A DNA stretch of 64,000 nt from Spirochaetaceae bacterium (GCA_051531975.1 JAOPTT010000002.1:634445-698444), one strand, 5' to 3'. Shown: positions 10,039-57,919, counted from the stretch's first letter. The notes: generated by a model not told the origin, from the letters alone. Program-made: numbers and translations.

Positions 10039-10071
10039 TTAATTTCTCCTTTTTATATATTGATAAATCAA

Positions 10072-10971: not shown

Positions 10972-10992
10972 ACTTATATCTCCTGTTCTATA

Positions 10993-11913: not shown

Positions 11914-12080
11914 TTTAATAATACCTTTAATATTCAATTTTTTCGAACGACTAAATAATCCTACCATCTATATACCGTTCGTAAATAAACTTATATTGAA
12001 CTATTAAAGGTGAGTGTACATATTAGAGTTGATATTAGGTATATATATACATTTTTTGAATAATAATTAACTATTTTCAA

Positions 12081-23102: not shown

Positions 23103-23162
23103 AATATAACTCCTGATTCTCTTTAATATATATTCATTATCAATCCGGAATCTATTTCTCAC

Positions 23163-23200
23163 CTTGATTATACCGTCAATTAATAGCATAATTCCGTCAT
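23163..23200. promoter_or_regulatory. Putative RhaS/RhaR-type direct-repeat site
   Basis: CCGTCA at 23173 and 23194 (21-bp period) in the rhaA/araC divergent intergenic region; the second copy overlaps the regulator's ATG. Confidence 0.45.
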
Positions 23201-37324: not shown

Positions 37325-37957
37325 ATGAAAAGAGAACTAAATGTAATTAATGCAGGCCGATTATCTTACAACGATGCACTTGAACTACAACTTAAAACAC
37401 AGCAAGATCGAATGGAAAACAAAATAGTAGATACAATAATTTTTGTGGAGCACAACCACGTCTTAACAACTGGTCGTAGAGACCAAAGCCATAATATATT
37501 AGTAGACCCAAAAGTTGTTGGAGCTGAACTTGTTCAAACCAACCGTGGTGGAGAAGTAACCTATCATGGACCTGGTCAGATAGTTGGATATATTATAATA
37601 AACCTAAAAGAGTATGGAAAAGGTATAAAAGGTTATATTACAGATTTAGAAGAAATATTCATTAGACTTTTAGAAAAAAACTACTCTATCGAATCATACA
37701 GAGATAGTGAACATCGGGGTGTATGGGTTAATAATGCAAAAATAACTGCTGTTGGAATTGCCGTAAACAGAGGAATTACAATGCATGGTTTTGCTTTTAA
37801 TGTGAATACAGACCTAGACTGTTTTAAATGGATAGTACCATGTGGTATCCAAGGTCGTGATGTTGAGTCACTTCAAAGATTAACAGGAAAAGAACTAGAT
37901 ATGGACATTGTAAGAGAACAAGTTCTAACATCTTTTAAAGATGTATTTGATTATTAA
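37325..37957 (+). CDS. lipB: Lipoyl(octanoyl) transferase
   Basis: EH..V.T.GR, RGGEVTYHGPGQ, KITAVG, HGFAFNV and IVPCG motifs. Confidence 0.95.
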   Translation: MKRELNVINAGRLSYNDALELQLKTQQDRMENKIVDTIIFVEHNHVLTTGRRDQSHNILVDPKVVGAELVQTNRGGEVTYHGPGQIVGYIIINLKEYGKGIKGYITDLEEIFIRLLEKNYSIESYRDSEHRGVWVNNAKITAVGIAVNRGITMHGFAFNVNTDLDCFKWIVPCGIQGRDVESLQRLTGKELDMDIVREQVLTSFKDVFDY

Positions 37958-37972
37958 TTAAGGAAAACAGAG

Positions 37973-38626
37973 ATGAAAATAGAAGCAATAATTTTTGATT
38001 TAGATGGAACACTTCTAAATACATTAGATGATTTAGCAGGAAGTATGAATAAAGTTCTAGAGGAGAATTCATTACCAACCCACCCATCTAGTTCATATCT
38101 GTATTTTATAGGTGGTGGTGCAAAAAAACTTGTCGAGAGTGCACTACCTGAAACAGAAAGAACCCCAGAACTAATAGATAAATATCTTAATAGATACCGA
38201 GATATCTACAGAGAGAATTGGAATGTTAATACAAAGTTATATGATGACATAGAGAGTATGTTAATTAAGCTAAAAAGCCTAAATGTACCTATTGCTGTAT
38301 TGTCTAATAAACCACATTCAGATGTTTTGAAATGTGTAGATTATTATTTTAAACCAGAAACATTTTTATCAGTAGCAGGGCAAAAGGATTCTATACCCCA
38401 CAAACCTGCACCCGATGGAGCTTTTAATATAGTAAATGAACTGAATGTTAATGTAGAAAATACAATCTTTGTTGGTGATTCCTCTGTTGATATGAAAACA
38501 GCAAAAGCAGCTAAAATGATTGCTGTAGGAGTATCCTGGGGGTTCCGTACCACTGAAGAGCTATTAAAAAATGGTGCTGACCATATTATTAACAATCCAG
38601 GCCAGTTACTTTCCCTTTTGAACTAG
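37973..38626 (+). CDS. HAD family hydrolase (phosphoglycolate phosphatase-like)
   Basis: FDLDGTLLNT, LSNK, KPAP, VGDS and GVSWGFR motifs. Confidence 0.88.
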   Translation: MKIEAIIFDLDGTLLNTLDDLAGSMNKVLEENSLPTHPSSSYLYFIGGGAKKLVESALPETERTPELIDKYLNRYRDIYRENWNVNTKLYDDIESMLIKLKSLNVPIAVLSNKPHSDVLKCVDYYFKPETFLSVAGQKDSIPHKPAPDGAFNIVNELNVNVENTIFVGDSSVDMKTAKAAKMIAVGVSWGFRTTEELLKNGADHIINNPGQLLSLLN

Positions 38627-38633
38627 AATTGCC

Positions 38634-38679
38634 TTGACTTAAAAAGTACTTCGAAAGATAATAGAAAGTATAACGAAAG
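38634..38679 (+). promoter_or_regulatory. Promoter overlapped by a triple GAAAG direct-repeat operator (probably DeoR)
   Basis: TTGACT-17 bp-GATAAT; CGAAAGATAATAGAAAGTATAACGAAAG at 38652-38679 matches the reverse complement of 47727-47754 at 26/28 positions. Confidence 0.75.
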
Positions 38680-38693
38680 TCAGGAGAAATACT

Positions 38694-39956
38694 ATGAAAA
38701 CTAAAGCTGTAAGATTATATGGTAAAAGTGATTTAAGATTAGAAGAATTTGAACTACCAGAAATTAAAGAGGGAGAGATTCTTGCAAAGATAATTTCAGA
38801 CAGCCTTTGTATGTCTTCATATAAGGCGCAAAGCCAGGGATCTGATCATAAAAGAGTTCCAAACGATATATCTGAAAACCCTATTATTATAGGTCATGAA
38901 TTTTGTGGAGAGATTGTAGAAGTCGGAAACAATTGGTCAACACAATTCAAATCAGGAGATCGATTTTCTATTCAACCAGCACTTAACTATAAGGGAAGCC
39001 TAGAAGCTCCAGGTTACTCATTCAGACATATTGGTGGTGACGCTACATATATAATAATTCCAGAAGAAGTTATGTTAATGAACTGCCTATTACCATACCA
39101 GGGAGACTCTTTTTTCATGGGTTCTTTAGCAGAACCAATGTCATGTCTTGTAGGTGCTATGCATGCAAACTACCATATTAAACAGGGTACATATATTCAT
39201 GAAATGGGTATTGTAGAAAATGGTAAAATGGCAATTTTAGCTGGTGTTGGACCAATGGGATTAGGAATGATCGACTATGCAATTCACTGTGATAGAAAAC
39301 CAGCTCTATTAGTTGTTACAGATATAGATGCAGCTCGATTAGAAAGAGCAGCATCTATATATACTGTTAAAGAAGCTAAAAAAAATGGTGTTGAACTTAT
39401 TTATATAAATACTTCAGATGTTAAAGATCCAATTGAAAAACTTATGGGTTTAACTGACGGTACAGGATTTGACGATGTATTTGTTATGGCACCTGTTAAA
39501 CCTGTTGTAGAACAGGGTGATAAGATCTTAGGTAAAGATGGTTGTTTAAACTTTTTTGCTGGACCTTCAAATACTGACTTTGCTGCTACTTTGAACTTCT
39601 ATGATGTTCATTATGCTGCTCACCATATTGTTGGAACAAGTGGTGGAAACACTGATGACATGAAAGAGTCTTTAGAAATGATGGCTGCAGGTAAAATTAA
39701 TCCAGCTGCTATGGTTACACATATTGGAGGTTTAGATTCAGTTGCAGAAACTACAATAAATCTTCCTAAAATACCTGGTGGAAAAAAACTTGTTTATACT
39801 AATGTTAAAATGGAAATGACAGCAATTGAGGACTTTAAAGAGAAAGGTAAAACTGATGATTTCTTTAAAGAACTAGCAGTTTTAGCAGAAAAATATAATG
39901 GTTTATGGTCTACAGAAGCAGAAAAGTTTCTAATGGCAAATTGTGAATCTATTTAA
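38694..39956 (+). CDS. Zinc-binding dehydrogenase, L-sorbose-1-phosphate reductase (SorE/YggP)-like
   Basis: MKTKAVRLYGK.DLRLEEFELP, SDSLCMSSYKA, GHEFCG, GPMGLG, GTSGG and PGGKKL motifs. Confidence 0.85.
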   Translation: MKTKAVRLYGKSDLRLEEFELPEIKEGEILAKIISDSLCMSSYKAQSQGSDHKRVPNDISENPIIIGHEFCGEIVEVGNNWSTQFKSGDRFSIQPALNYKGSLEAPGYSFRHIGGDATYIIIPEEVMLMNCLLPYQGDSFFMGSLAEPMSCLVGAMHANYHIKQGTYIHEMGIVENGKMAILAGVGPMGLGMIDYAIHCDRKPALLVVTDIDAARLERAASIYTVKEAKKNGVELIYINTSDVKDPIEKLMGLTDGTGFDDVFVMAPVKPVVEQGDKILGKDGCLNFFAGPSNTDFAATLNFYDVHYAAHHIVGTSGGNTDDMKESLEMMAAGKINPAAMVTHIGGLDSVAETTINLPKIPGGKKLVYTNVKMEMTAIEDFKEKGKTDDFFKELAVLAEKYNGLWSTEAEKFLMANCESI

Positions 39957-39992
39957 CCTATAATAAACGTGTAAATATAGTTTCAAAATACT

Positions 39993-40023
39993 TAAAACCC
40001 CATGCAAAAGCATGGGGTTTTTA
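39993..40023 (+). terminator. Intrinsic terminator
   Basis: TAAAACCCCATGC-AAAA-GCATGGGGTTTTT. Confidence 0.85.
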
Positions 40024-40047
40024 TTTATAACAACTATTTGAATCAAC

Positions 40048-40082
40048 AAAAAAAAAGCCACAAGGATGAGCTCCCTGTGACT
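40048..40082 (-). terminator. Intrinsic terminator of the dehydrogenase operon
   Basis: Minus strand AGTCACAGGGA-GCTCA-TCCTTGTGGCT followed by a T-run. Confidence 0.75.
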
Positions 40083-40117
40083 AATGGAAAAAATTAAAAT
40101 GATAAAATGTTGTATTG

Positions 40118-41203
40118 TTATTTAAGCATTACTTGCCCACCGGTAACAGGCACAGCCTGTCCAGTTTCATACTTCTGATCAACTATATATGTTACAGCTT
40201 TCATTACATCCTCTGTAGTACAACCCCTTTTCATAGGAACTTTACCTTCGTAAAAAGCTCTAACATCAGCAATTGTTGTTGCTCCCGGAACCTTACCAGT
40301 ATTAAGATACTGAACAAAAAGTCCTCTATCTGGATCTGACCATAATGGTCCATCTAGAAAGTTACCTGGAGCAATTGAATTTACTTTTATATTATCAGAA
40401 ATTAACTCTAAGGCAAAACTTTGCGTGAGACCAATCCCCCCGAATTTAGCCCCTGCATAGGCTCCATTTTTATTAGAGCCTTCAAGTCCTGACTTAGAGT
40501 TTATCTGAATAATGTCAGTTAAATAATTGTTTGAATATTTGTTTTGCTCAGCCATTAAAACAGAAACAAACTTAGTACATATAAAGTAACCTGTATAATC
40601 TACAGATGTTACAAAATTAAAATCCTTAAGGGACATCTCTTTAACACTACCGGCTTTTAAAACTCCGGCATTACTAATAAAAACATCAATACCACCAACA
40701 GTTAAAGCAATCTCTTCTACCATCTGTTCTACGGAATCTTCATCTGTTACATTTACAGCTACTGCATAAGCTACAGTCTGACCTTTAGACTCATTTAGTT
40801 CCGCAGCTAGTTTTTTAGCACCATCTATATTCATATCTGCAATAAAAACTGTGCTTCCATAAGTTACTAAATCTCGAACAAGTCCTTCACCAAACCCTTG
40901 AGCTCCACCTGTTACAACTGAAACTTTTCTGTTTAATGGATGGTGGTTAGATTCATCAAAATCTGAATCTATTAAATAACTTCCTTTTCCAGCAATATTT
41001 ACACAATCAGGAAAAACTCCATGATCTTTAACATAACCTGTAAAAGCCTCAGTTAAACTTTTTTCTAAATCATTATTATCTGCAATTTCTAAAGTGTTAT
41101 TACAATTTGGGTTTAATTTTCCAGAATATAAGATCTTTGACAATCTATCTTCTATTTGTGTTAAACCTCTTAGTTGTGTTGCTATCTTTACAATCTCTTT
41201 CAT
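40118..41203 (-). CDS. SDR oxidoreductase, sorbitol-6-phosphate 2-dehydrogenase (SrlD)-like, with N-terminal extension
   Basis: TGGAQGFG, NAG, IQINSKSG..GS.KN.AYAGAKFGGIGLTQSFALEL and VTGGQVM motifs. Confidence 0.85.
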   Translation of the reverse strand: MKEIVKIATQLRGLTQIEDRLSKILYSGKLNPNCNNTLEIADNNDLEKSLTEAFTGYVKDHGVFPDCVNIAGKGSYLIDSDFDESNHHPLNRKVSVVTGGAQGFGEGLVRDLVTYGSTVFIADMNIDGAKKLAAELNESKGQTVAYAVAVNVTDEDSVEQMVEEIALTVGGIDVFISNAGVLKAGSVKEMSLKDFNFVTSVDYTGYFICTKFVSVLMAEQNKYSNNYLTDIIQINSKSGLEGSNKNGAYAGAKFGGIGLTQSFALELISDNIKVNSIAPGNFLDGPLWSDPDRGLFVQYLNTGKVPGATTIADVRAFYEGKVPMKRGCTTEDVMKAVTYIVDQKYETGQAVPVTGGQVMLK

Positions 41204-42495
41204 ATCATCTTCTCTTCATTTATAATTTTTTGTATCTCATCTGTTAATACAGGATTACTTGGATCTAATAATCTTCCAATTTTTTCATAACAACTAATTC
41301 TCTTTTCTAATGATAAAGATGCTAGTTTGTTATTTTTAGAAAAAATAGAGTAACTACTATCTATGTTAGTTAGTTTCTCATGAGCAATTAATGCCCATGT
41401 TGATCCAATTAGATGAGAGAAATCTGGGTCTAAAACTTCAGGACAGTTAAAAGATTGTCTTGATGAGTTAATATCAACACCACTTATTTCCATAAAACCT
41501 AGCTTTTTACAGATGTTTTTTACTCTGTTAAGCTGTTTTTTACTATTTCTTGGAGGCATGTAAGTAATAGCCTTAAATCCAATTCTTTTAAGTTCTTCTA
41601 AAAGTTCATCTAGAAAGTCATCTTCAAACTTCTCAGCTTTTTTATCCCCAGTAGAGCTATTACCAACATCACCTAAGTAGGCATAAGTTGGTAGAGCACC
41701 AATAAGATTAGCAAAATCTACAACTGTTTGAACACCTATACATTCGTCTTCTGTTGGTTGTATAAAAAAGCTTGGTAAATAGTTAGACTTTAGGATACCA
41801 AGAAGATCATAAAGATAGTGAGGATTTTCCTCATCAAGTAAAAATTCTTTAACCTTTAGTGGTATATCAAGTCTCATTACATTTTCAATAAAATACAGAG
41901 CCCGAAGTCTTACAGGATATTTTTTAGCTATCTTTTTAGCTAAAGCATAAAGAATGTGTCTTTCTGTAATACTTCCATTTATCTTTGTATTAGATATAGA
42001 AACTATATCTTTCTCAAAATCTATGGGATCTAGAGAAAAGGGTAAAATTAACTCATTAAGCTTTTTAACCTCTTCTCTATTTCTTCTATTCCTTTCGATA
42101 TTTAAAGGCGCAATAAACTTTTCAACTTCAGAAAACTTTGATGCAGGAATACCATGAACAGCCATGTAGGCTATATTTTTTGAGTCAGGATTATTTAACT
42201 TCTTACCCTGAACTGTTGTTCCGTTCATATTAACCCTAACTTCAAAACCAGCTGTGGAGGCTATACCTAGCACTTTACACGCTTCAAGTAGTTCATTTGC
42301 TCCTGAAATACTGTCATGATCCATAATACCTACAGCATTTAAACCTGCTTTCCATGCATAAAAAGCTGCACTTGTTGGAGAATATGGACTAAATGAATAT
42401 GTAGTATGAACATGATTATTAACCTCAATGTTTTTAACTACTGGTCCATTTTCTGCCATCTTCTCTTTTAAATTATCTAATGAAATAGTTTCCAT
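41200..42495 (-). CDS. PHP domain-containing protein
   Basis: NNHVHTTYS, IMDHDS, GFE, AVHG motifs; terminal motif reads GVDIN instead of GSDxH. Confidence 0.8.
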   Translation of the reverse strand: METISLDNLKEKMAENGPVVKNIEVNNHVHTTYSFSPYSPTSAAFYAWKAGLNAVGIMDHDSISGANELLEACKVLGIASTAGFEVRVNMNGTTVQGKKLNNPDSKNIAYMAVHGIPASKFSEVEKFIAPLNIERNRRNREEVKKLNELILPFSLDPIDFEKDIVSISNTKINGSITERHILYALAKKIAKKYPVRLRALYFIENVMRLDIPLKVKEFLLDEENPHYLYDLLGILKSNYLPSFFIQPTEDECIGVQTVVDFANLIGALPTYAYLGDVGNSSTGDKKAEKFEDDFLDELLEELKRIGFKAITYMPPRNSKKQLNRVKNICKKLGFMEISGVDINSSRQSFNCPEVLDPDFSHLIGSTWALIAHEKLTNIDSSYSIFSKNNKLASLSLEKRISCYEKIGRLLDPSNPVLTDEIQKIINEEKMI

Positions 42496-42507
42496 AATCT
42501 CCCCTAA

Positions 42508-44967
42508 TTAAACACCGTCACGGTTACGTCTTAAAACTTCGCCATTAGTCTGGTTACTAATTGGTGTATATCCAGCTAAAGGTAGAATCTGCTCATGAAT
42601 TGCATCTAATATCCACTCTGGTGCAGGGAAGAAATACTCTTCCATCTCTGCTGGTGGAGTTATCCAGTTCATTGCACCAACAACAACTGGAGGTGCATCT
42701 AAGTAGTCAAAAGCCTGTCTACTAACATGGGATGCTACAGTATGAAGGAATGAACCTCTCTCACTTGCATCAGATGCTAGAACTAACTTACCAGTCTTTT
42801 TAACAGACGCTATAATTTTGTCGTAGTTTAATGGATTCATAAATCTCATGTCTATTACTTCGGCTTCAAGGTTATGTTCTTCTTTAAGCTTCTTAGCTGC
42901 TTTCATAGCTGTATAAAGTGTTGAACCAATAGTAAGGATAGTTATATCTTTACCTTCACATCTAATTGCTGGCTCCCCTTCTTCTATTTCGTAATAACCT
43001 TCAGGAACACCATCTTTTTCAAATTCTTCACCAATACCGTATAACTTCTGACTTTCGAAGAAAATTACAGGATCTGTACCTCTAAGTGCTAAGTTTAACA
43101 TTCCTTTAGCATCGTAAGGTGTAGTTGGGAACATTACTTTAAGCCCTGGCATATGAGCTGTTAAAGCTGTCCAGTCCTGTGAATGTTGTGCTCCATATTT
43201 ATTACCAACAGAAACTCTTAAAACAAGAGGCATTTTTAAAACACCACCACTCATTGACTGCCACTTAGGCATCTGGTTAAAGATTTGATCTCCAGCTCTA
43301 CCCATAAAGTCACAATACATAAGTTCGGCAACTGCTCGTCCACCACTCATCGCATACCCTACAGCACTACCAACAATAGCAGCCTCTGAAATAGGAGAGT
43401 TAAAAAGTCTATGGTATGGTAGGGCCTCAGTAAGTCCACGGTAAACAGCAAATGCTCCACCCCAGTCTCTATTTTCCTCACCATATGCAACCATAGTTGG
43501 ATCTTCGTAAAATCTATGTAACATAGCCTCAAATAGACCATCTCTTAATGTAAATGTTTTAGCAGCTGAAAATGGTTTACCTTTAGCATCAAATGCGTAT
43601 CTATTTTTTCTCTTAATAGATTTAACAGTAGGATTTTCCTCTTTTGTTAAAAGAACTTCTGGTTCTCTGTCATCTAGTTTTGGTTCATTACCGTTCGAGA
43701 ACATAATTGACTCAATAAATTGACCATTTACATGAGGAGAAATATCATCGTTTATAGCAAGAGACATAGTATTAGTAATTTTACCTACTATTTTCTCTTT
43801 TAGTTCACTCTCTTCACTTTCTGATATAACACCGTTTTCAAGTAGATATTCACCATACATACTAAGACTGTCGTGTTTCTTAAAGTTATCCATCTCTTCT
43901 TTTGTTCTATAAGAAGCAGCATCTGAAGGTGAGTGACCTGAGTGTCTATATGTAATAGTTTCCATAAAAACAGGACCTTTACCAGCTAATAGAAGCTCTT
44001 TCTTTCTCTCCATTGCGTCAGCAACAGCTAGTGGATTAAATCCATCAACTCTCTCTGTATGCATATTATCTGGATTAACACCGGCACCAACTCTTGCTGC
44101 AAGTCCATAACCCATTGTTTCACCGTTAGTTTGACCACCCATTCCGTAGAAGTTGTTAAAAATATTTAACATCCATGGAGGAGCGCCGCCCATCTCTTTT
44201 TCCCAAAGTGTATTATATTGGTCCATTGCACCCATTGATAGGGCTTCCCAAACTGGTCCACAACCTAATGATGCGTCACCGATATTACCAATAACAATTC
44301 CAGGTTTTCTGTTTATTCTTTTAAATAGAGCTGCACCCATACTTACATCGGCACTACCACCAACAATTGCGTTGTTAGGCATACTTCCAAAAGGAGAGAA
44401 GAATGTATGCATTGAACCACCAAGACCTTTATTAAATCCTGTTTCTCTAGCAAAAATCTCTGCTAATGCACCATATAAAATGAAGTTCTCTGCTAGGTCT
44501 GCTGTATTTGAGCTTTTATACCCTTTCTCAACAATTCTTAAACTGTCTCCACCAAAAAAACCTTCCATTGTTCCTACAAGTGCAGAATCTTTCATCTGTC
44601 TGATTGCAGAAAATGATTTAGATAAAATCTCACCATGGGATCTATGTGAACCAAAGATATAATCGTCTGCATCTAAGTGGTAACTCTGACCAACTGCTGC
44701 AGATTCTTGACCTGCAGACAAATGGGCAGGACCTCTGTGGTTATATTCAATTCCATTATAGGAACCTTCTGTTTTAATAGAGTTTAACATCATCTCAAAC
44801 TCTCTAATCATTAACATATCGTAGTAAATGTTCTTTAGACCATCTTTACCATACTTCTTAAGCTCTTTCTTAATATCCGGCTTATACTGGTTAACAGGGA
44901 TATCTTTAAGCTTTATCATATCCGGCTTTCTTACTTCAATTGGATCAATTATTTGATTCTTTGGCAT
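42508..44967 (-). CDS. ThDP-dependent dehydrogenase E1 component, fused alpha and beta subunits
   Basis: [23 protein letters not shown] ThDP motif, [11 protein letters not shown]; beta part [20 protein letters not shown]. Confidence 0.9.
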
Positions 44968-44986
44968 ATCATGTTCTCCTTGTTTT

Positions 44987-46315
44987 CTATAAATTCCACA
45001 ATGTATCTTTAATAATTTCAGATACAGATGGATGTGGAAAGATAATCTCTTTTATCTCTTTAACTCTTAATTCAGCTTCTATCATTACTGATGCAGCAGC
45101 TATAATTTCACTACAAACACCACCAAGCATATGAACACCAAGTAGAATATCTGTTTCAGCATCAACTACAACTTTACAAAGACCACCGGCTTTACCGTTT
45201 TCTGCGAAGAAACGACCGTTACCTCTCATCTGCATAGATGCTGTTTTAACTTTAATACCTTTCTCTTTAGCTTCAGAATCAGTTAAACCACAACCTGCAG
45301 CTTCTGGATATGTATAAACAGCCCATGGAACAGAGTTGTAACGCATAACGTCATCCTCGCCACAGATCTGTTTAACTACAACTTCACCCATTCTATAAGC
45401 AGAGTGTGCCAGAAGAGATTCCCCTGTAACGTCTCCGATTGCATAAACACCAGGAAGATTTGTTTTCATTCTGTCGTCTACTTTTATACGGCCTCTTTCT
45501 ATATCAAGACCTGAACCTTCAAGTGATGCTATATTTGGTCTACGACCAACAGCCATCAAAATTAACTCGGCATCTATAACTTTTTCAGCCTTCTTTTTAT
45601 CTGTGTATGTAACTTTACTTCCATCAATTTTTTGAACCTGACATGATAGATTAAATGTTATATCTTTCATCTCTCGTCTCATAATTTTTGCAAGATCTTT
45701 ATCCATAAAAGGAACAATCTCATCCATCATTTCAACAATATCAGTTTTAATTCCAAGGTTAGAAAAGAAAGAAGCAAACTCTAAACCAATTACACCTCCA
45801 CCAATAACCACAACAGATTTTGGCAGTGTTTCAAGATTTAAAACTTCTCTACTTGTTAAAACGTTTGGACTATCTGCACCTGGAATTGGAGGAACAAACG
45901 GAGAAGAACCAGTAGCAATTACAATGTTTTCCCCTTGGTAATCCTGTCCATTAACAGAAACAGTTTTACCACCTTTAAAAGTAGCCTCACCTTTAATAAC
46001 TTCAACTTTGTTGTGCTTCATTAAATATTCAACACCACTTCTATTTTGCTGTATAACTTCTTCTTTCCAGGCCATAGCGTCTTTCATATTAAAAGTTACA
46101 TTTTCAGAAGTAACTCCATATTTTTGACTGCTTTTAGCCTTTTTATACAGTTTAGAAGAGTTTAGAAGACTCTTTGTTGGAATACACCCTCTATTAAGAC
46201 ATACTCCACCTAAGTGTTCTTTCTCTATGATTAATACTTTTTTACCCTGATGCCCTGCTCTTTCAGCAGTTAAATATCCACCAGGGCCTGCACCAATAAC
46301 TATAATATCGTACAT
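44987..46315 (-). CDS. lpdA: Dihydrolipoyl dehydrogenase (E3)
   Basis: [33 protein letters not shown] and HPSVSE motifs. Confidence 0.95.
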
Positions 46316-46325
46316 TTATTTCCCC

Positions 46326-47693
46326 TTAGAGTGCGATCAAAAGATCGATATTTTCTATAGCGCTAACAAGAGCTTTTAAGAAAGCTGCAGCTGGTGCTCC
46401 ATCCACTGATTGGTGGTCAAAAGTTAAAGATAAACCAATATGAGGAATAAATTTTACTTCGTTTCCTTTTTGGATAGGTTTTAAGTTAATATTACATACA
46501 CCTATAATTCCAACTTCTGGTTTATTTAATACTGGAGTAAAACTCTCTATACCCATTGAACCAAGGTTTGTAACTGTAAAAGTTCCACCTTGTAGATCGT
46601 CAGGTACTGCTTTACCTTCTAATGCTGCACCAAAAATCTCTTTACCTTTGTCAGAAATACCTTTAAGTGAGTAAGAACCAGCATCTTTAATTACTGGAAC
46701 TAAAAGACCTTTAGGAGTATCAACTGCACATCCTAAATGTACTTTTTCAAACTGCTTGATTGTATCGCCTAACCAGTGAGCATTCATATCTGGAAATTTT
46801 GGAAGTGTTTTAGCAACTGCAAATAGTATTAGATCGTTAATAGTAACTCTCTGCATTCCAAATGATTCATCACTATTTTTAAACTTCTGTCTTAGTGCCT
46901 GTAGTGCTGTTGCATCTGCAGAGCTATTAAGTGTTAATTGTGCTGTTTTAGAAATAGACTCAAACATATACTTTGCAGTAACTTTTCTAACACCTTTAAC
47001 TTTAATATCAGTAACTGGTCCTGGAAAAGAGACCTGACCTGCAACCGCTGTATTTACAACAGGTGCTATAACAGCTTCATTTTGAATATCTGATAACAGA
47101 ACTCTTCCACCAATTCCACTACCTTTAACTGGTACTGGTCTACCTGATTTAAGTAGTTCTTCAATTGCTGCTGGGGATAGAGATGGAAATTCTTTTGTTA
47201 ATGCAAGAATATCTCTTTCTATAACTCTTCCGACCGGGCCAGATCCTGCTATTGTTTGAATATCAAGACCTTTAGCTGATGCTAAATTCATAGCTCTTGG
47301 AGATCCAATCTTTCGACCTTCTACACCCTCTGTTGGCACTGCTGTTGGAACAGGTACTGCTACTACTTCTTTTTCTGCTGGAGAACTTGACTCTGTATCT
47401 TCATCAGAATCATCATCAGAACTAACTTCAGCTAAATACTCAGTAATGTCTTCCCCTGGTGTACCAATTAAGGCAATTAAATTATGTACAGGAATATCAT
47501 CATCTTCTTCATATAATGCCTTTAGAAATGTACCTTCAAAACTTGATTCTACCTCGATGGTTGCCTTATCGGTTTCCACTTCACATAAGATATCACCAAC
47601 TACTACTGCATCACCCTCTTTTTTAAGCCATGCTACAAGTATACATGACTCTACCGAGTTACCCTGCTTAGGCATTAAAACTTTATCCGCCAT
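46326..47693 (-). CDS. Dihydrolipoamide acyltransferase (E2)
   Basis: Lipoyl domain ETDKA, subunit-binding motif GSGPVGRV, GGTFTVTNLG, catalytic DHQSVDGA; start ATG 47693 with RBS AGGAG. Confidence 0.92.
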   Translation of the reverse strand: MADKVLMPKQGNSVESCILVAWLKKEGDAVVVGDILCEVETDKATIEVESSFEGTFLKALYEEDDDIPVHNLIALIGTPGEDITEYLAEVSSDDDSDEDTESSSPAEKEVVAVPVPTAVPTEGVEGRKIGSPRAMNLASAKGLDIQTIAGSGPVGRVIERDILALTKEFPSLSPAAIEELLKSGRPVPVKGSGIGGRVLLSDIQNEAVIAPVVNTAVAGQVSFPGPVTDIKVKGVRKVTAKYMFESISKTAQLTLNSSADATALQALRQKFKNSDESFGMQRVTINDLILFAVAKTLPKFPDMNAHWLGDTIKQFEKVHLGCAVDTPKGLLVPVIKDAGSYSLKGISDKGKEIFGAALEGKAVPDDLQGGTFTVTNLGSMGIESFTPVLNKPEVGIIGVCNINLKPIQKGNEVKFIPHIGLSLTFDHQSVDGAPAAAFLKALVSAIENIDLLIAL

Positions 47694-47726
47694 AACATCT
47701 CCTATTTTCATTTTAATTATTAAAGT

Positions 47727-47772
47727 CTTTCGTTATGGTTTCTATTATCTTTCGTTATTCTTATTTCGTCAA
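47727..47772 (-). promoter_or_regulatory. Promoter with triple GAAA(G) operator for the E2-E3-E1-PHP-SDR operon
   Basis: TTGACG-17 bp-GATAAT; operator CGAAAGATAATAGAAACCATAACGAAAG. Confidence 0.75.
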
Positions 47773-47855
47773 GCTTTAAGCTTAACAAATTCTTTCTTTT
47801 TGCTTTTCTTTTTCTTTCTTTTTACCTTTAATTTGTAATAATTGATCGAATTAAT

Positions 47856-47893
47856 AAAAAAAGGCCACTTCTGCTAAATTAACAAAAGTGGCC
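47856..47893 (-). terminator. Intrinsic terminator after tkt
   Basis: GGCCACTT...AAGTGGCC stem with seven T residues on the minus strand. Confidence 0.75.
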
Positions 47894-47913
47894 AATATTA
47901 TATAAAACTAATT

Positions 47914-49905
47914 TTATGAAAAATGTTTAGTAATTTTTTCTACTACTGCTTCAGGAACAAAACCAAATTTTTTCTGTAAAACAGAAGCTGGCGCAGATTC
48001 ACCAAAGTGATCAATACCAATTGAAAGTCCTTCTAGACCAACATATTTACCCCAACCAAAAGTTGTAGCAGCTTCAATAGAAACACGCTTTGTAATAGAT
48101 AGTGGTAAAACAGAATCTCTATAAGACTTTTCTTGTCTTTCAAAAATCTCTCTTGAAGGCATAGATACAACTCTAACTTTTTTACCATCTTTTCTAAGTA
48201 TATCAGCAGATTCTAATGCTAAATTAACTTCAGATCCAGTTGCAATTATTAGTAAGTCATAATCTTTATCTTCACTTAATACATATGCACCTTTATCCAT
48301 ATCAATTTTCTTAGCTTGCTCTACACTTAGTGGAGCAAGGTTCTGTCTAGTAAAAATAAGAGCAACAGGACCTTCAATTTTAACAGCACTGTTCCATGCA
48401 TGAGCAACTTCGTTTGCATCAGCAGGTCTAATAACTGTCATATCTGGAATAGTTCTTAACATAGGTAATTGCTCAATAGGCTCATGTGTTGGACCATCTT
48501 CACCAACAAAAAATGAGTCGTGAGTAAATACATATACAAGGTTTAAATTCTGAAGTGCTGCAAGTCTTACAGCTGGCTTCATATAGTCAGAAAATACAAA
48601 AAATGTTGAAGAGTATGGTATTCCTGTTCCGTATAGAGCCATACCATTAGCTATCATACCCATACCAAGTTCTCTTACACCAAAGTGGAAGTTTCTTCCC
48701 TTATATGAATCAGCTAAGAAACTAGCTTCACCAACAATATCTGTTTTTGTAGAAGGAGATAAGTCAGCAGAACCACCAAATAAAGCAGGTACTAACTCTG
48801 CTACTTTTTGTAATACTTTACCACCAGAAGCTCTAGTAGCTATTGGAGAATCAACTGGTGTAACAGCTAATAACTCTTCTAATAGATTCTCTGGAACAAA
48901 CTTACTAGTCAATTTAGTAATTAACTCTGCTTGCTTAGGGTTAGATTTTTGATATTCGTCAAAAGATTTATTCCAAGATTTTGCATCTGCTTGTAGCTCT
49001 AATACTCTAGCATGGATATCTTTTTGAAGATTTTCATCAACAACAAAAGATTCATCACCAAAACCAAATGCAGTTTTTGTAGCTGCAAGCTCTTCGACAC
49101 CTAAAGGTTCTCCATGAGCCTTATGTGAACCACCTTTATTAGGGGCACCATAACCAATTGTAGTTTTACCAATAATAAGAGTTGGCTGACCAGTACTTAT
49201 CTGAGCTTCTGCTAACGCTTTATCAACTTGGTCTAAATCGTTTGCGTTTGCAACATTAATAACTCTCCAATCATAGGATTTATATCTCATTTCAACATCT
49301 TCACTAAAAGAGATGTCTGTATTTCCTTCAATTGTTATACTGTTATCATCATAAAATACTATTAGGTTATCAAGTTTAAGATGTCCAGCTAAAGATGAAG
49401 CTTCAGAAGTAGTTCCTTCCTGGAAACAACCATCTCCTGATACAGCGTAAATTTTCTGATCCTTAAATAGATCATTTTTATCTAGACCAGTTCTTGAAGA
49501 GAAGTTTTTAGCTGCTATTGCCATTCCAACTGCTGATGCAAAACCACTACCTAAAGGTCCAGTAGTACAATCAACTCCGGCTGTATGTCCAAACTCAGGA
49601 TGTCCTGGAGTTAAACTACCTAGTTGTCTAAAGTTTTTAAGTTCTTCCATTGATAAACCATACTCAAATAGATGAAGTAGGGAATATAATAACATTGATC
49701 CATGTCCAGCAGATAAAACAAATCTATCTCGACCTATCCATGTAGGATTAGTAGGATCATGACGTAGATATTTACTCCATAAAGTATAAGTAAAATCTGC
49801 ACATCCCATTGGCATTCCCGGGTGTCCTGAATTGGCTTTTTGAATAGCCTCAGCTGATAAAATTCTAATTGTATCCGCTGCTAATTTTGCATTTTCTTTT
49901 TGCAT
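47914..49905 (-). CDS. tkt: Transketolase
   Basis: ANSGHPGMPMG, RDRFVLSAGHGS, TTGPLG, GDGCFQEG, FGVRE and THDS..GEDGPTHEP motifs. Confidence 0.97.
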   Translation of the reverse strand: MQKENAKLAADTIRILSAEAIQKANSGHPGMPMGCADFTYTLWSKYLRHDPTNPTWIGRDRFVLSAGHGSMLLYSLLHLFEYGLSMEELKNFRQLGSLTPGHPEFGHTAGVDCTTGPLGSGFASAVGMAIAAKNFSSRTGLDKNDLFKDQKIYAVSGDGCFQEGTTSEASSLAGHLKLDNLIVFYDDNSITIEGNTDISFSEDVEMRYKSYDWRVINVANANDLDQVDKALAEAQISTGQPTLIIGKTTIGYGAPNKGGSHKAHGEPLGVEELAATKTAFGFGDESFVVDENLQKDIHARVLELQADAKSWNKSFDEYQKSNPKQAELITKLTSKFVPENLLEELLAVTPVDSPIATRASGGKVLQKVAELVPALFGGSADLSPSTKTDIVGEASFLADSYKGRNFHFGVRELGMGMIANGMALYGTGIPYSSTFFVFSDYMKPAVRLAALQNLNLVYVFTHDSFFVGEDGPTHEPIEQLPMLRTIPDMTVIRPADANEVAHAWNSAVKIEGPVALIFTRQNLAPLSVEQAKKIDMDKGAYVLSEDKDYDLLIIATGSEVNLALESADILRKDGKKVRVVSMPSREIFERQEKSYRDSVLPLSITKRVSIEAATTFGWGKYVGLEGLSIGIDHFGESAPASVLQKKFGFVPEAVVEKITKHFS

Positions 49906-49927
49906 TTAATTAAGTCTCCTTCAACTT

Positions 49928-50683
49928 TTATACAAGCTTTATATCTGTACCGCTCTTTTTAATTTTTTCTACATATTCTTTATCTAAACCAGTATCAGAA
50001 ATAATACAGTGTAGATGATCAAGTGATAATATTTTTACAAATCCATTTTTTCCATATTTTGTAGAGTCAGCTACTAAAATAGTTTTATCGGCCTGTATAT
50101 TCATTTTCTTAATTACTTCTGCACCGTCTACAAGGTGTGTAGTCATACCAGTCTCCAGGGAAAAGCCACTTGTACCAACAAATGCATATTTCACATGAAA
50201 GTTTCCTAAATCATTTAACGTAACAGGACCAACTAAAGCCTCTGAGGATGAGTTAAAAGTTCCTCCTACTAAAGTTAAACTAAGTGCTGTATTTATTCTT
50301 GCATAAGAGAATACAAGTGTAGAGTTTGTTACAATATGAATATCCCTTTTACCTAATAGATACTTAGGTATAAGAGAAGATGTAGTACCGTCATTAATCA
50401 TAACAGTATCTCCATCTTTTATCATATCTGCTGCAGCTTTAGCAATTCTATTTTTTTCCTCTATAAAATGTCTCTGACTCTCAAGAATGTCAGGATGAAA
50501 AGCAGGGAAAGCTCCACCTCTTGTTCTAACAATAAACCCCTTCTCTTCTAGAGAGCTAAAGTCGCTTCTAATAGTAACTTTAGAAACTCCTAACATCTCA
50601 CTAATATCGTTAACCGAAGGTTTATTATCGTTCATAAGTAGTTCAAGAATTTTGTTTTCTCTTTCTGTTAAACCTGCATTCAT
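49928..50683 (-). CDS. DeoR/GlpR family transcriptional regulator
   Basis: GVSKVTIRSD..LE..G...RTRGGA HTH; EKNRIAKAAA, DGTT, VTNS and ADSTK motifs. Confidence 0.94.
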   Translation of the reverse strand: MNAGLTERENKILELLMNDNKPSVNDISEMLGVSKVTIRSDFSSLEEKGFIVRTRGGAFPAFHPDILESQRHFIEEKNRIAKAAADMIKDGDTVMINDGTTSSLIPKYLLGKRDIHIVTNSTLVFSYARINTALSLTLVGGTFNSSSEALVGPVTLNDLGNFHVKYAFVGTSGFSLETGMTTHLVDGAEVIKKMNIQADKTILVADSTKYGKNGFVKILSLDHLHCIISDTGLDKEYVEKIKKSGTDIKLV

Positions 50684-51564
50684 ACTTTTTTATTCCTTTC
50701 TATTAAATTATACATTTCTTCCGCATTATATGAGCTCCTAACAAGTGGACTTGAAGCGACGGATAAAAAGCCAAGTTTTTCACCTAACCTTTTATACTCT
50801 TCAAATTTATCTGGGTGTATATATTCTACAACTTCATGATGATCTTCCGATGGAGCTAGATATTGGCCTATAGTTAAAATCTGACACTCTACTTCTCTTA
50901 AATCTTTTAATAGATAAAAGATCTGGTCTGCTGTCTCACCAAGCCCAAGCATTATTCCAGATTTTGTTACGATCTCTGGGGCTATTTCTTTAACCCTTTT
51001 TAATAACTCTAGGGATTGTTCATATTTTGCCTGAGGTCTAACTTCGTCATATAAAGATTTAACAGTCTCCATATTGTGATTTATAATATCAGGAGCCGCA
51101 TCTATAACTGTTCTTAATGCGTCTTCATTACCTCTAAAGTCTGGAATTAATACTTCTATTATAACCGATGGGCTACTCTCTTTTATTCTATTTATTATTT
51201 CTGCAAAGTGGGCCGATCCACCATCTGCTAAATCATCTCTTGTAACAGATGTTATAACAACATGCCGTAGTCCCATCTCTTTTACAGCTAAAGCAATATT
51301 ACCTGGTTCATTTATATCTGGAGTTTCTGTTTTACCCTTAGTTACTGTGCAAAAAGTACAATTTCTAGTGCATACTTTCCCTAATACAATAAATGTAGCA
51401 GTCTTTTTACTATAACACTCACCTCTATTAGGGCACATGGCTTCGTTACATACAGTATTTAGGGACCTTTTTTTAAGAAGATCTTCTATAAAAGTTAAAT
51501 TATCATTCTGGTTAACTTTTATTCTTAACCAGTCTGGCTTTTTCTTATAATTTCGAACAGACAT
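50680..51564 (-). CDS. lipA: Lipoyl synthase
   Basis: CNEAMCPNRGEC, CTRNCTFC, VITSVTRDDL, HNMETV, TIGQYL and VRSSY motifs. Confidence 0.97.
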   Translation of the reverse strand: MSVRNYKKKPDWLRIKVNQNDNLTFIEDLLKKRSLNTVCNEAMCPNRGECYSKKTATFIVLGKVCTRNCTFCTVTKGKTETPDINEPGNIALAVKEMGLRHVVITSVTRDDLADGGSAHFAEIINRIKESSPSVIIEVLIPDFRGNEDALRTVIDAAPDIINHNMETVKSLYDEVRPQAKYEQSLELLKRVKEIAPEIVTKSGIMLGLGETADQIFYLLKDLREVECQILTIGQYLAPSEDHHEVVEYIHPDKFEEYKRLGEKLGFLSVASSPLVRSSYNAEEMYNLIERNKKV

Positions 51565-51580: not shown

Positions 51581-51640
51581 ACTATATCACGCTTTTGTTT
51601 AACTTATCAATATCTTTCGAATGGCTTTGCTTAAACTTTC
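51581..51640 (-). promoter_or_regulatory. lipA-deoR-tkt promoter with an upstream triple (G/C)AAAG repeat
   Basis: TTGATA-18 bp-TATAGT; CTTTC/CTTTG/CTTTC at 51614, 51625 and 51636 (11-bp period). Confidence 0.55.
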
Positions 51641-55957: not shown

Positions 55958-57919
55958 ATGAGTATAAGTTATGAAATCCTCTACATGAAGGGTTCGACTT
56001 TAGGAAGAGAAAATCCTCTACCTAAATTCAGATCCCTAGAGAGAGAAATGCCCTTAGAGCATGATGAGACATTTCTAGAGAAAGATAAAAAACTGTTTGG
56101 GAGTGAGACGGGCTTTAGAGTTTTACCATATAGCCTCCAGGATAGTTATACCCGAGATAAAAAGCATATAGAACTACAAACGGTAGTGTTGGAAAATGAA
56201 TTTTTAAGAGCACAGTTTCTAACAGATTTTGGAGCTCGTCTTATATCTCTAATTGATAAAAAAACAGGTAAAGAACTACTGTTTAAAAACACTGTTTTTC
56301 AGACAGCGAACCTTGCAGTCCGTGATGCGTGGTTTGCTGGAGGTATAGAGTGGAATATTGGCCAGTTTGGTCATACTCCATTAACCTGTGTTCCCTACTT
56401 TTTTGCAAAGGTATTAGATGATTCTGGGCAAGAGTTTCTTAGGGCTTACGAATACGAAAGAAATAGAAAGGTTTTTATATCAATAGATTTCCACCTACCA
56501 GAGGGAGCTAAAGAACTTGGTACATATGTAAGGATAATAAATCAAAACGATCTACCAACTCCTATGTACTGGTGGACAAATATTGCAATTAAGGAAGACA
56601 GGGATGTACGTATTTTTTCTGATACGAATGAAGTTCTTTATATTAAACCGGAATCAATAGAGATAGAGAACTCAGTACATCAGTTTGGACGGGGAACAAT
56701 AGATAACCTACCTTCCCTTCCAGGTAGAGATGCATCAGAACCTCGAAATTTTCCTTTTGCTAGTGAGTACTTTTTTCAAACTCCACAAGAGACTGTCTCC
56801 CCATGGGAAGCCGCTGTATATAACGATGGATTTACTTTCTTTGAAAAATCAACATCTTTGTTACAGTATAGAAAGATGTTCTGCTGGGGTACTCATAGTG
56901 GTGGACGAAACTGGTGTGATTACCTAAGTGAACCTGGTAAAGGGGATTATTTGGAAATACAGGCTGGTATATCTCCAACTCAAGTACACGGATTAGAGAT
57001 GCCAGGAAACAGTACCTGGGATTTTACTCAGATCTTTGGATCTACAACTTTAGATGTTAATAAAAGCTATCTAGATTGGGACAGATCTAAGAATTATGTG
57101 CAAGAATCTCTAACTAATATTCTAGATGATAATGAAGTTCTAAATAGACATGAAACATATAAAAAATATGCAGAGTATGAGCCAGTGCAGATAATTCATA
57201 ATGGTTCAGGTTGGGGTGCTTTAGAAGAACAAAGAGATGGAACACCAAAAGGTTTAGTTTTTCCAGAATCTACTATAGGTCCTCTACAAAAACCCTGGGT
57301 CGATCTATTAGAAACTGGTATTTTCCCTTCAGATTATGTAGAAAACTCATGGATGGTTGATGCAAAATGGAAAGAACTATTACTTAAACATTTAGATAAA
57401 AACAATAAAAACCCATGGCCATTAATTCACCTAGGAGTGATCCTATACGAAGAAGGGGATCATGTAAAAGCTCTGGAACTATGGGAAAAATCCTTACGAC
57501 TTAAGGAAACACCTATAGCACTACGTAATGTATCAATTTTCTACAAAGATAAAGGCCAAGATGATAAGGCTCTGGAATATATGTTCAAATCTGTTAATTC
57601 AGAATCAGAAAACAGAGATATTTACTTAACAGTAGAACTTATGGAACTACTATATAAGTTAAATAGATACAAAGAAGTATGGGAAACATATAACAAACTA
57701 CCACCAGATCTAAAACAGAATGAAAGAATTATTGTTTTAGTTGGTCTATGTGCATTTGAAATAGAAGAGTATGAATTTCTAGAAGAACTTTTTAATAAAG
57801 AATTTGCCTATATTAAAGAGGGTGAAACCAGACTGTTTGAACTTTGGGATAAGTATTGTATTAAAAAATACGGATCTAAAAAAACAGCCCCTAAAACTAT
57901 AGATTTTAGTATGGCTTAA
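55958..57919 (+). CDS. DUF5107 domain protein with C-terminal TPR-like helices
   Basis: VVLENEFL..FGARLISL.DK..GKELLFKN..NLAVRDAWFAGGIEWNIG, YWWTNIA and YLEIQAG motifs; TPR-like tail. Confidence 0.75.
   Translation: MSISYEILYMKGSTLGRENPLPKFRSLEREMPLEHDETFLEKDKKLFGSETGFRVLPYSLQDSYTRDKKHIELQTVVLENEFLRAQFLTDFGARLISLIDKKTGKELLFKNTVFQTANLAVRDAWFAGGIEWNIGQFGHTPLTCVPYFFAKVLDDSGQEFLRAYEYERNRKVFISIDFHLPEGAKELGTYVRIINQNDLPTPMYWWTNIAIKEDRDVRIFSDTNEVLYIKPESIEIENSVHQFGRGTIDNLPSLPGRDASEPRNFPFASEYFFQTPQETVSPWEAAVYNDGFTFFEKSTSLLQYRKMFCWGTHSGGRNWCDYLSEPGKGDYLEIQAGISPTQVHGLEMPGNSTWDFTQIFGSTTLDVNKSYLDWDRSKNYVQESLTNILDDNEVLNRHETYKKYAEYEPVQIIHNGSGWGALEEQRDGTPKGLVFPESTIGPLQKPWVDLLETGIFPSDYVENSWMVDAKWKELLLKHLDKNNKNPWPLIHLGVILYEEGDHVKALELWEKSLRLKETPIALRNVSIFYKDKGQDDKALEYMFKSVNSESENRDIYLTVELMELLYKLNRYKEVWETYNKLPPDLKQNERIIVLVGLCAFEIEEYEFLEELFNKEFAYIKEGETRLFELWDKYCIKKYGSKKTAPKTIDFSMA

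Follow-up and report, generated by a model that had tools for sequence, protein, structure and literature searches.

A conserved gene cluster for a ThDP/lipoamide complex in a spirochaete, with a candidate role in the breakdown of L-rhamnose and L-fucose

Genes, regulatory sites and transcription units of the cluster

We analysed a 64,000-nucleotide stretch of DNA (hereafter the window) from a Spirochaetaceae bacterium with a marine spirochaete-like genome (GCA_051531975.1, JAOPTT010000002.1:634445-698444), in which positions 37325-51564 carry a fused E1 dependent on thiamine diphosphate (ThDP), its E2 and E3 partners, and genes of sugar-phosphate and lipoate metabolism. By analogy with known enzymes, we propose that this cluster would be a conserved, DeoR-controlled module for 6-deoxyhexoses, whose complex would cleave a 1-deoxyhexulose-6-phosphate to acetyl-CoA and a tetrose-4-phosphate, a proposal to which we give even weight for and against. 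An initial annotation made from the sequence alone had listed eleven genes here, all of which were recovered as open reading frames (ORFs) exactly where it had placed them, with their families confirmed by Pfam and NCBIfam:

37325-37957, plus strand: lipB, octanoyl/lipoyl transferase (TIGR00214, 175.7 bits; cut-off 83.55)
37973-38626, plus strand: HAD-IA phosphatase, phosphoglycolate-phosphatase-like (PF13419; top NCBIfam match 146.5 bits, below the cut-off of 225)
38694-39956, plus strand: SorE-family zinc-dependent alcohol dehydrogenase (Zn-ADH), a homologue of Zn-dependent ketose-1-phosphate reductases, 420 aa (tblastn to annotated sorE)
40118-41203, minus strand: SrlD-like short-chain dehydrogenase/reductase (SDR), 361 aa with an N-terminal extension of 90 aa (PDB 5o3z; PRK12384)
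41200-42495, minus strand: divergent PHP-fold metal hydrolase-like protein, 431 aa (PF02811, 30.3 bits)
42508-44967, minus strand: fused ThDP-dependent E1 alpha-beta, 819 aa (E1_dh, Transket_pyr and Transketolase_C domains)
44987-46315, minus strand: E3, dihydrolipoyl dehydrogenase (TIGR01350, 500.3 bits; cut-off 408.8)
46326-47711, minus strand: E2, lipoyl-bearing acyltransferase (PF00364 lipoyl, PF02817 E3-binding, PF00198 2-oxoacid_dh)
47914-49905, minus strand: transketolase of the canonical type (TIGR00232, 815.5 bits; cut-off 682.25)
49928-50683, minus strand: DeoR-family regulator (PF08220 and PF00455)
50680-51564, minus strand: lipA, lipoyl synthase (TIGR00510, 387.5 bits; cut-off 310.25)

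Curated equivalog cut-offs of NCBIfam were passed by lipA, lipB, E3 and the transketolase, and by none of E1, E2, the SDR, the Zn-ADH, the HAD phosphatase and the DeoR regulator. A scan of the whole window with Rfam returned no RNA family.

Both oxidoreductase labels of the initial annotation held up. Over 100% of its length the "SorE-like" Zn-ADH is 47.8-48.3% identical to genes annotated as sorE in Serratia, Citrobacter and Klebsiella, labels that in those plasmid records are annotation by similarity, and the same tblastn comparison against plasmids gave 53-55% identity to E. coli yggP-type genes; its matches in the PDB are limited to distant polyol dehydrogenases. For the "SrlD-like" SDR, the best solved relative is a sorbitol-6-phosphate dehydrogenase (5o3z, 167 bits), followed by a match of 101 bits and an acetoin reductase at 95, and the protein misses the SrlD equivalog (PRK12384, 239.6 bits against a cut-off of 307). 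Elsewhere the same genome has another SorE-family paralogue, with 54% identity to the Zn-ADH and no E1 nearby (G000:C9:27999-29255).

The PHP protein belongs to a large, unnamed family with at least 7951 homologues (7951 of 8000 scored candidates, E <= 0.001). In its AlphaFold2 model (predicted local distance difference test, pLDDT, 91.4) the predicted protein has the PHP fold, its nearest folds being the phosphoesterases of the TrpH/Cv1693/RNase AM type (3e0f, 2yb1 and RNase AM; Foldseek E 6e-12 to 5e-10, target-normalised template-modelling score 0.68-0.72). It keeps their HxH, Asp, Glu and C-terminal His ligands, but is about 150 aa longer and resembles them in sequence at 23 bits only, the single match of a sequence-only PDB search. 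Residues H28, H30, D59, E85, N343, H372, E178 and R179 are invariant, whereas the Bacteroidales and Victivallales variants lack the canonical H60 and H113.

Co-transcription of the PHP and SDR genes with E2-E3-E1, as initially suggested, fits the spacing from E2 through E3, E1 and PHP to the SDR (gaps of 10, 19 and 12 bp, then a 4-bp overlap) as well as a promoter-like site before E2 and a terminator-like hairpin behind the SDR. The Zn-ADH has a promoter-like site of its own, separate from the E2 unit:

38634-38662, plus strand: promoter-like site before Zn-ADH, TTGACT-17-GATAAT, overlapped by a 28-nt element, CGAAAG-N16-CGAAAG, at 38652-38679
39994-40021: terminator-like hairpin closing the Zn-ADH unit, convergent with the next
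40082-40056, minus strand: terminator-like hairpin closing the E2-to-SDR unit
47772-47744, minus strand: promoter-like site before E2, TTGACG-17-GATAAT, with the second copy of the 28-nt element at 47727-47754
47893-47863, minus strand: terminator-like hairpin between transketolase and E2, 14 pairs and a T-run

Because the last of these hairpins separates the transketolase from E2, lipA-DeoR-tkt is probably a transcription unit of its own. The promoters of E2 and Zn-ADH are alike in that each combines TTGAC, a spacer and the 28-nt element (CGAAAGATAATAGAAA..ATAACGAAAG), which contains the -10. By direct string comparison the two copies are identical at 26 of 28 bases, and the pattern CGAAAG-N14-18-CGAAAG matches twice in the window, before E2 and before Zn-ADH, against 0 matches in 100 shuffles. 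We regard this element as a putative DeoR operator, and a common repressor of the E2 and Zn-ADH units is probable from the shared site, most simply the product of the adjacent DeoR gene. Genome-wide, this loose pattern matched 3 times (the window's two sites and one extra, unrelated-looking one) versus 3 in a reversed control, and a half-site pattern 9 times versus 6. Since the reversed control matches the loose pattern equally often, the evidence for an operator is the near-identity of the two sites and not the pattern itself. No further regulon members were callable from this genome-wide search, which found no site at the fucI-kinase locus on contig 7; a single half-site, CGAAAGATATTGA, lies upstream of lipA (51607-51619). 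None of the listed records that contain the stretch is an RNA record. A small metatranscriptome (X3), which shares its sample with the probable source, contained two short, 100%-identical contigs, one within the SDR gene (40902-41083) and one at the 3' end of E2 (46324-46491), which may be DNA carry-over and are evidence neither for nor against expression.

Conservation of the gene set and its rhamnose/fucose neighbourhood

Relatives of the fused E1 were collected in a scan of one genome per species, which gave at least 588 of them. The best 80 loci were analysed, and come from Spirochaetota, Kiritimatiellales/Pontiellaceae, Victivallales, Bacteroidales, Atribacteria, Calditrichia, Chloroflexota and Hydrogenedentes. 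Neighbours were counted by tblastn with the window proteins (at least 50% coverage and at least 40% identity) in a flank-complete set of 40 of these loci, with at least 5 kb on either side of E1; ORFs in related loci were called by a crude longest-ORF heuristic, and its antisense artefact clusters (c10, c12, c23 and c38) were disregarded. In the flank-complete set, E2 and E3 were each present in 34 loci, the SDR in 32, PHP in 31 (the main type in 22, a shorter Bacteroidales variant in 9) and the Zn-ADH in 26, with SDR and Zn-ADH occurring together in 26; a DeoR gene preceded E2 in 23. The commonest gene order was DeoR-E2-E3-E1-PHP-SDR-ZnADH. Two other members of the window's cluster did not follow this set: no lipB homologue was found in the best 80 related loci, so that the lipB linkage is special to the window, and the HAD phosphatase was not found beside the module in any other of these loci.

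The phyletic distribution was assessed in an even set of 201 genomes of the phylum, each at least 90% complete. Nine of them have an E1 orthologue (59-100% identity); PHP accompanies E1 in 8 of the 9 and was found in none of the 192 others, and the Zn-ADH (at least 61% identity) in the same 8 genomes as PHP, with a 53%-identity homologue in 1 of the 192, counts to which we attach no statistical claim. The linkage of E1 to SDR, PHP and SorE-like genes, on whose conservation the initial annotation had let its proposal depend, is thus conserved both across phyla and phyletically. In one sampled family (f16, e.g. G058, G089 and G096), all 9 genomes carry 1-3 distant fused E1 alpha-beta copies at 34-38% identity and all have fucI, and this distant E1 may represent a second variant of the system.

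The substrate class had been left open in the initial annotation, and the neighbouring genes point to L-rhamnose and L-fucose. When all ORFs of the best 80 loci were clustered and representatives scanned, at least one rhamnose/fucose gene was found in 26 of the 40 flank-complete loci and in 35 of the best 80. Among the latter are a rhamnulokinase-like FGGY kinase in 24 loci (502 bits against a cut-off of 528), L-fucose isomerase (FucI) in 10 and L-rhamnose isomerase (RhaA) in 7; the mutarotases FucU and RhaM, RhaT, FucP and a rhamnose ATP-binding cassette (ABC) transporter also recur, as does a lipoate-protein ligase beside the module in Bacteroidales. The kinase lies directly 3' of the Zn-ADH in 10 loci and behind an intervening pyrophosphatase gene in 3, and in the Sphaerochaeta loci the module lies on one strand, flanked by the kinase at one end and by a rhamnose transporter and mutarotase at the other. 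In the phylum sample, rhaA or fucI is present in all 9 module holders versus 35 of the 192 other genomes. Six Bacteroidales loci (L012, L013, L014, L015, L021 and L027) have, after the Zn-ADH, a 432-aa protein with two class II aldolase domains, whose best NCBIfam match is 3-oxo-tetronate-4-phosphate decarboxylase (167 bits against a cut-off of 250); the lipoate-protein ligase gene comes next in 5 of the 6 and was not found in L021.

The window itself carries rhamnose genes at 19-24 kb, about 15 kb upstream of the cluster:

19153-20643, minus strand: FGGY sugar kinase in the rhaA operon, distant from rhamnulokinase (76.8 bits)
20745-21848, minus strand: RhaE-like class II aldolase-fold protein, 367 aa, split partner of the SDR
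21849-23216, minus strand: L-rhamnose isomerase (NF002203, 650.3 bits; cut-off 572); the model matches from residue 39, and the true start is probably internal
23199-24068, plus strand: RhaS/RhaR-like AraC regulator, divergent from rhaA

These genes are surrounded by sulfatases, glycoside hydrolases of families GH2 and GH88, a beta-glucuronidase and sugar ABC transporters. Measured against the canonical rhamnose pathway, RhaA passes its cut-off, the kinase is only a distant FGGY relative, and beside the RhaE-like protein no RhaD-type aldolase was found among the window proteins. The same genome has fucI and a rhamnulokinase-like kinase on another contig. An argument from a genome free of aldolases was considered and rejected, given five class II aldolase-fold genes here, one of them about 4 kb from fucI.

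The RhaE-like protein is tied to the cluster by gene fusion. Bacteroidales have, in 11 loci, a protein of 645-693 aa with the SDR as its C-terminal half and a RhaE-like domain as its N-terminal half, and to this domain the window RhaE-like protein is 35-39% identical end to end; because its homologue is fused to the module SDR in Bacteroidales, we assign it to the module. The fusions score 218-260 bits against TIGR02632, below its cut-off of 567.75, and their SDR half alone 205-221 bits against the SrlD model, while the window RhaE-like and SDR proteins reach 136 and 137 bits against the RhaEW models (TIGR02632/PRK08324), also below cut-off. The only solved relative of the RhaE-like protein is the uncharacterised 3m4r.

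Identity of the E1/E2/E3 complex

The initial annotation had held that the complex is not a housekeeping pyruvate dehydrogenase (PDH), and the genome bears this out. It encodes a full pyruvate:ferredoxin oxidoreductase (PFOR; 1732.7 bits against a cut-off of 911), and the window holds its only dehydrogenase-type E1_dh and its only 2-oxoacid_dh domain, in E1 and E2 respectively. Although the top NCBIfam names for both proteins are PDH components, the corresponding cut-offs are all missed, by E1 alpha (TIGR03182, 173.1 versus 393.85 bits), E1 beta (PRK09212, 239.5 versus 321) and E2 (TIGR01349, 269.7 versus 445). E1 alpha and beta trees of 24 rows each were built by quick searches with a small reference set taken from plasmid annotation, namely 9 split E1s (5 Aco-type or Aco-annotated, 3 PDH and 1 branched-chain 2-oxoacid dehydrogenase, BCKDH) and an unrelated Streptomyces fused E1. 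In both trees 12 module E1s and 2 Rhizobiales fused E1s form one clade (SH-aLRT 100) on a stem of 0.64 (beta) and 1.41 (alpha), outside the PDH, BCKDH and Aco references, including the Mycetohabitans and Enterococcus aco-type loci. Thus, in the phylogenetic comparison with PDH, BCKDH and AcoAB that the initial annotation had suggested, and with this small reference set, E1 groups with none of them and forms its own deep clade; the nearest outside rows in the alpha tree are a C. difficile Aco-like E1 and the long-branch Streptomyces fusion, a placement that is unsure.

These results bear on one alternative, an ordinary PDH or acetoin/2,3-butanediol system that merely happens to lie beside sugar genes. 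The acetoin dehydrogenase system (AcoA/AcoB/AcoC/AcoL) likewise brings together a ThDP E1, a lipoyl E2 and an E3, lipA within such clusters has a precedent in the Mycetohabitans aco-type locus, and the SDR and Zn-ADH families include butanediol dehydrogenases. In the module, however, E1 is fused, with an alpha part about 140 aa longer, and forms a separate clade; the regulator is of the DeoR family, as opposed to the sigma-54 regulators (AcoR) of two aco-type reference loci; the context is one of sugar phosphates, with a phosphorylated deoxyketose as presumed substrate. The match of the SDR to the SrlD-type structure reaches 167 bits, against 95 to acetoin reductase, and E1 orthologues in merely 9 of the 201 phylum genomes, together with the missed PDH cut-offs, the position of E1 outside the references and the presence of PFOR, speak against such a system. 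We therefore consider this alternative highly improbable.

The two Rhizobiales fused E1s are 51-52% identical to the window E1. Behind each lie genes for a free-standing lipoyl protein and an alpha/beta-fold hydrolase, that is, an AcoC-type E2 split in two; their loci also hold lipA, sugar kinases, SorC-type regulators, sugar transporters and a FucU/RbsD gene. These plasmid loci of aerobes (L082, Agrobacterium pAt15955, and L083, a Rhizobium indicum plasmid) thus pair an E1 of this clade with a split AcoC-type E2, the kinases being of the PfkB and FGGY types; a mannitol-dehydrogenase-family gene is also present beside FucU/RbsD, and they may represent a non-phosphorylated entry to the same cleavage.

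Two accessory functions suggested initially are weakened. The lipoate supply is not exclusive to the complex, as the genome has one GcvH gene elsewhere. As for a transketolase that recycles the remainder of the substrate, the gene is present, but it is of the canonical type, one of three full-length copies, in its own unit and rare near E1 (2 of the 40 flank-complete loci; 4 of the best 80, all Pontiellaceae/Pontiella), and its part in the module is suggestive only. A gene resembling fructose-6-phosphate aldolase (FSA/TalC-like; 214 bits, below the cut-off of 246) flanks the module in 2 of the best 80 loci only (L047 and L049, Pontiellaceae), in both of which a transketolase flanks it as well. 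The two further full-length transketolase-like genes of the genome (G000:C7:248875-251411 and C9:344953-348006) have as neighbour an FGGY kinase in one case and a class II aldolase-fold gene in the other; they may be parts of other ThDP sugar modules.

A candidate route from deoxyhexoses to acetyl-CoA

In the L-sorbose pathway, the SorE/SrlD pair moves a keto group to the far end of the sugar, from L-sorbose-1-phosphate through D-glucitol-6-phosphate to D-fructose-6-phosphate. The module contains the same two families, a Zn reductase and an SDR, adjacent or near to each other; it differs from the sorbose pathway in its rhamnose/fucose neighbours and in the coupling of the pair to a ThDP/lipoamide complex and PHP, and no genes of the phosphotransferase system that serves sorbose were found in the scans of the window or of the related loci. 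Transferred to 6-deoxyhexoses, this chemistry suggests the following route. As indicated by homology, isomerase and kinase would make L-rhamnulose-1-phosphate or L-fuculose-1-phosphate, the steps and inferred ketose-1-phosphate that the module shares with the canonical RhaABD and FucIKA plus FucO/AldA pathways (MetaCyc L-fucose degradation I); the proposed later steps would replace or bypass the canonical split into dihydroxyacetone phosphate (DHAP) and lactaldehyde. By analogy with the conversion of L-sorbose-1-phosphate to D-glucitol-6-phosphate, the SorE-family reductase would reduce the C2 keto group to give a 6-deoxyhexitol-1-phosphate, which is the same as a 1-deoxyhexitol-6-phosphate. 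The SrlD-like SDR would then oxidise the penultimate carbon, at the methyl end, to a 1-deoxy-ketohexose-6-phosphate (CH3-CO-CHOH-R); a Fischer-projection analysis matches C5, which is L-configured in both sugars, to the carbon of D-glucitol-6-phosphate that SrlD oxidises, C2.

Such a product would be a methyl ketone with an alpha-hydroxyl, a look-alike of acetoin and the one-carbon homologue of 1-deoxy-D-xylulose 5-phosphate. CH3-CO-CHOH-R is the motif cleaved by acetoin dehydrogenase E1, and from that mechanism we infer that the fused E1 would cleave C2-C3 and place the acetyl group on lipoyl-E2, with E2 forming acetyl-CoA and E3 NADH. The tetrose-4-phosphate may enter the pentose-phosphate pathway through transketolase or transaldolase. 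More speculatively, the RhaE-like protein may invert C4, as AraD (L-ribulose-5-phosphate 4-epimerase) does; by the Fischer-projection analysis, the tetrose is D-threose-4-phosphate without an epimerase and D-erythrose-4-phosphate with it, the two sugars converging in either case, and an epimerisation would explain both the RhaE-like-SDR fusion and the transketolase and FSA/TalC-like neighbours. All six carbons would reach central metabolism, with a stoichiometric estimate of about 3.7 ATP per sugar versus 2 with propanediol excretion, and more reducing equivalents. The initial idea of a dedicated, sugar-cleaving ThDP/lipoate complex is thereby kept, whereas acetyl-CoA, derived from the methyl-ketone end of a 1-deoxyhexulose phosphate, is a more probable product than the hydroxyacyl-CoA that it had proposed. 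As a precedent for the intermediate, 1-deoxyfructose-6-phosphate is a documented bacterial metabolite: the 1,5-anhydroglucitol/mannitol route (YbiW/PflD and FSA aldolases) also passes through a 1-deoxy-ketohexose-6-phosphate, there with glycyl-radical isomerases and an aldolase yielding glyceraldehyde-3-phosphate (GAP) and hydroxyacetone in the description given, and no ThDP/lipoamide complex (PMC13450708).

The same end products could be reached in another order, in one of two ways that we consider improbable. Either the SDR acts first to give a 6-deoxy-2,5-diulose-1-phosphate (resembling DKFP, 6-deoxy-5-ketofructose 1-phosphate), which E1 cleaves before the Zn-ADH reduces a C4 keto-aldehyde phosphate, or an aldolase (RhaE-like or FSA-like) splits the 1-deoxyhexulose-6-phosphate to GAP and hydroxyacetone. 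Both variants fit the same enzyme families, and the RhaE-like-SDR fusion suggests consecutive steps; FSA-type aldolases are reported to cleave 1-deoxyfructose-6-phosphate in this way (PMC13450708), and an FSA/TalC-like gene lies beside the module in L047 and L049. The first variant, however, asks SorE-type and SrlD-type enzymes to accept substrates unlike those of their families, while the second leaves E1/E2/E3 with nothing but hydroxyacetone, from which formaldehyde would result, and the FSA-like gene is seen in just 2 of the best 80 loci.

Another alternative, which we rate as unlikely though ahead of a different reaction order, is that the module disposes of lactaldehyde, with the RhaE-like protein acting as a rhamnulose-1-phosphate aldolase and the complex oxidising L-lactaldehyde, or a C3 compound derived from it (for example methylglyoxal or hydroxyacetone), to an acyl-CoA. 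A class II aldolase-fold gene does belong to the module, but such a function leaves the SorE-family reductase, the SrlD-like SDR and PHP unexplained, although PHP and Zn-ADH accompany E1 in 8 of 9 genomes. No ThDP/lipoamide E1 is known to act on a 2-hydroxyaldehyde, which counts against this alternative, and cleavage of hydroxyacetone by the complex would release formaldehyde. In Caldicellulosiruptor, Rodionov et al. (2021) placed an acetoin-dehydrogenase homologue (Athe_0702-4) in a DeoR (RhaR2) rhamnose regulon, and suggested that the homologous three-subunit complex performs the last, lactaldehyde-consuming step, lactaldehyde reductase and dehydrogenase being missing there (PMC8579813); in the same paper, however, Athe_0702-4 is listed with no assigned function. 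Pontiella strain F1 makes lactate from fucose with no aldA identified in the account given (PMC7356697). The bifunctional RhaEW (B. subtilis YuxG, Chloroflexus Caur_2283) has the same folds, a class II aldolase and an SrlD-related SDR, the module versions also lie in rha loci, and RhaEW converts rhamnulose-1-phosphate and NAD+ to DHAP and lactate in vitro (PMC3870299). The module protein always travels with Zn-ADH, PHP and E1/E2, partners that the passages on RhaEW do not mention, in a comparison by description only (PMC3870299). The RhaEW assays gave neither DHAP nor lactate without NAD+ (PMC3870299), an observation that would, speculatively, fit oxidation before C-C cleavage.

Several points weigh against the proposed acetyl-CoA route. 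Everything after the kinase step rests on analogy; PHP, the most tightly linked accessory gene, is given no role; and D-threose-4-phosphate, the product without an epimerase, has no known fate. The RhaE-like protein and the SDR, as homologues of RhaEW, could simply be an aldolase and a lactaldehyde dehydrogenase, and class II aldolase-fold genes are at hand in the genome, as the five mentioned above show, including the one about 4 kb from fucI. The 35 module-less genomes with fucI or rhaA indicate that the module is not needed for deoxyhexose use, and the phyletic counts come from kin genomes that are not independent and so overstate the support. Moreover, E1 has no SDR, Zn-ADH or PHP gene next to it in L030, L067, L075 and five Oceanispirochaeta loci. 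Of five genomes with such an isolated E1, three have a PHP orthologue elsewhere (60-62% identity), in one of the three together with SDR-ZnADH-kinase, and in the other two PHP was not found with the window query.

Algal fucoidans, ulvans, pectins and mucins contain fucose and rhamnose as major monomers, and the anaerobic breakdown of the two sugars is currently modelled as a split into DHAP and lactaldehyde, with propanediol excreted for cross-feeding. The gene set described here is widely conserved, and its probable function is to convert their methyl end to acetyl-CoA and not propanediol. It is possible, though we hold the complete scheme to be doubtful, that this is the first ThDP/lipoamide complex with a sugar phosphate as natural substrate, in which a SorE/SrlD keto-shuffle and a 4-epimerase of the class II aldolase fold would lead to acetyl-CoA and erythrose-4-phosphate, and thus a third, aldolase-independent and propanediol-free pathway for fucose and rhamnose, widespread among anaerobic polysaccharide degraders of sediments, digesters and guts. 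If true, predictions for marine sediments, digesters and guts would change in ATP yield, in H2 and propanediol fluxes and in cross-feeding; acetoin/2-oxoacid dehydrogenase complexes would gain a new class of substrate, and the large orphan PHP family and a family of RhaEW paralogues would gain functions. Assignments of guilds from genomes, in which only the two MetaCyc fucose pathways are considered, would be altered as well. A 2026 study of fucoidan, for instance, sorts genomes by fucose pathways I and II only in the scheme it presents (PMC13668718). Consistent with the initial annotation, which knew of no characterised pathway with this gene set, none was found in full-text searches, with subscription journals and supplements outside the search; the lactaldehyde suggestion for the Caldicellulosiruptor complex was the one published idea encountered.

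Further genes of the window lie outside the cluster. Just past lipA, positions 55958-57919 (plus strand) encode a 653-aa DUF5107/TPR protein, which follows a sugar ABC transporter that is itself under the control of an AraC regulator. At the other end, positions 1675-14258 hold two arylsulfatase-like genes (1675-3168 and 4130-5455), a 977-aa GH2 protein (5452-8385), ABC permeases and an AraC-type hybrid regulator of 725 aa; taken with the GH88 and beta-glucuronidase genes at 34-37 kb, this gives the window the look of a utilisation region for a sulfated rhamnose/uronate polysaccharide, perhaps ulvan-like. Between AraC regulators beside the rha genes lies a 356-aa protein (24081-25151, minus strand) with a weak similarity, 51 bits and below cut-off, to MtaA/CmuA methylcobamide methyltransferases; it could be a component of methyl-sugar demethylation.

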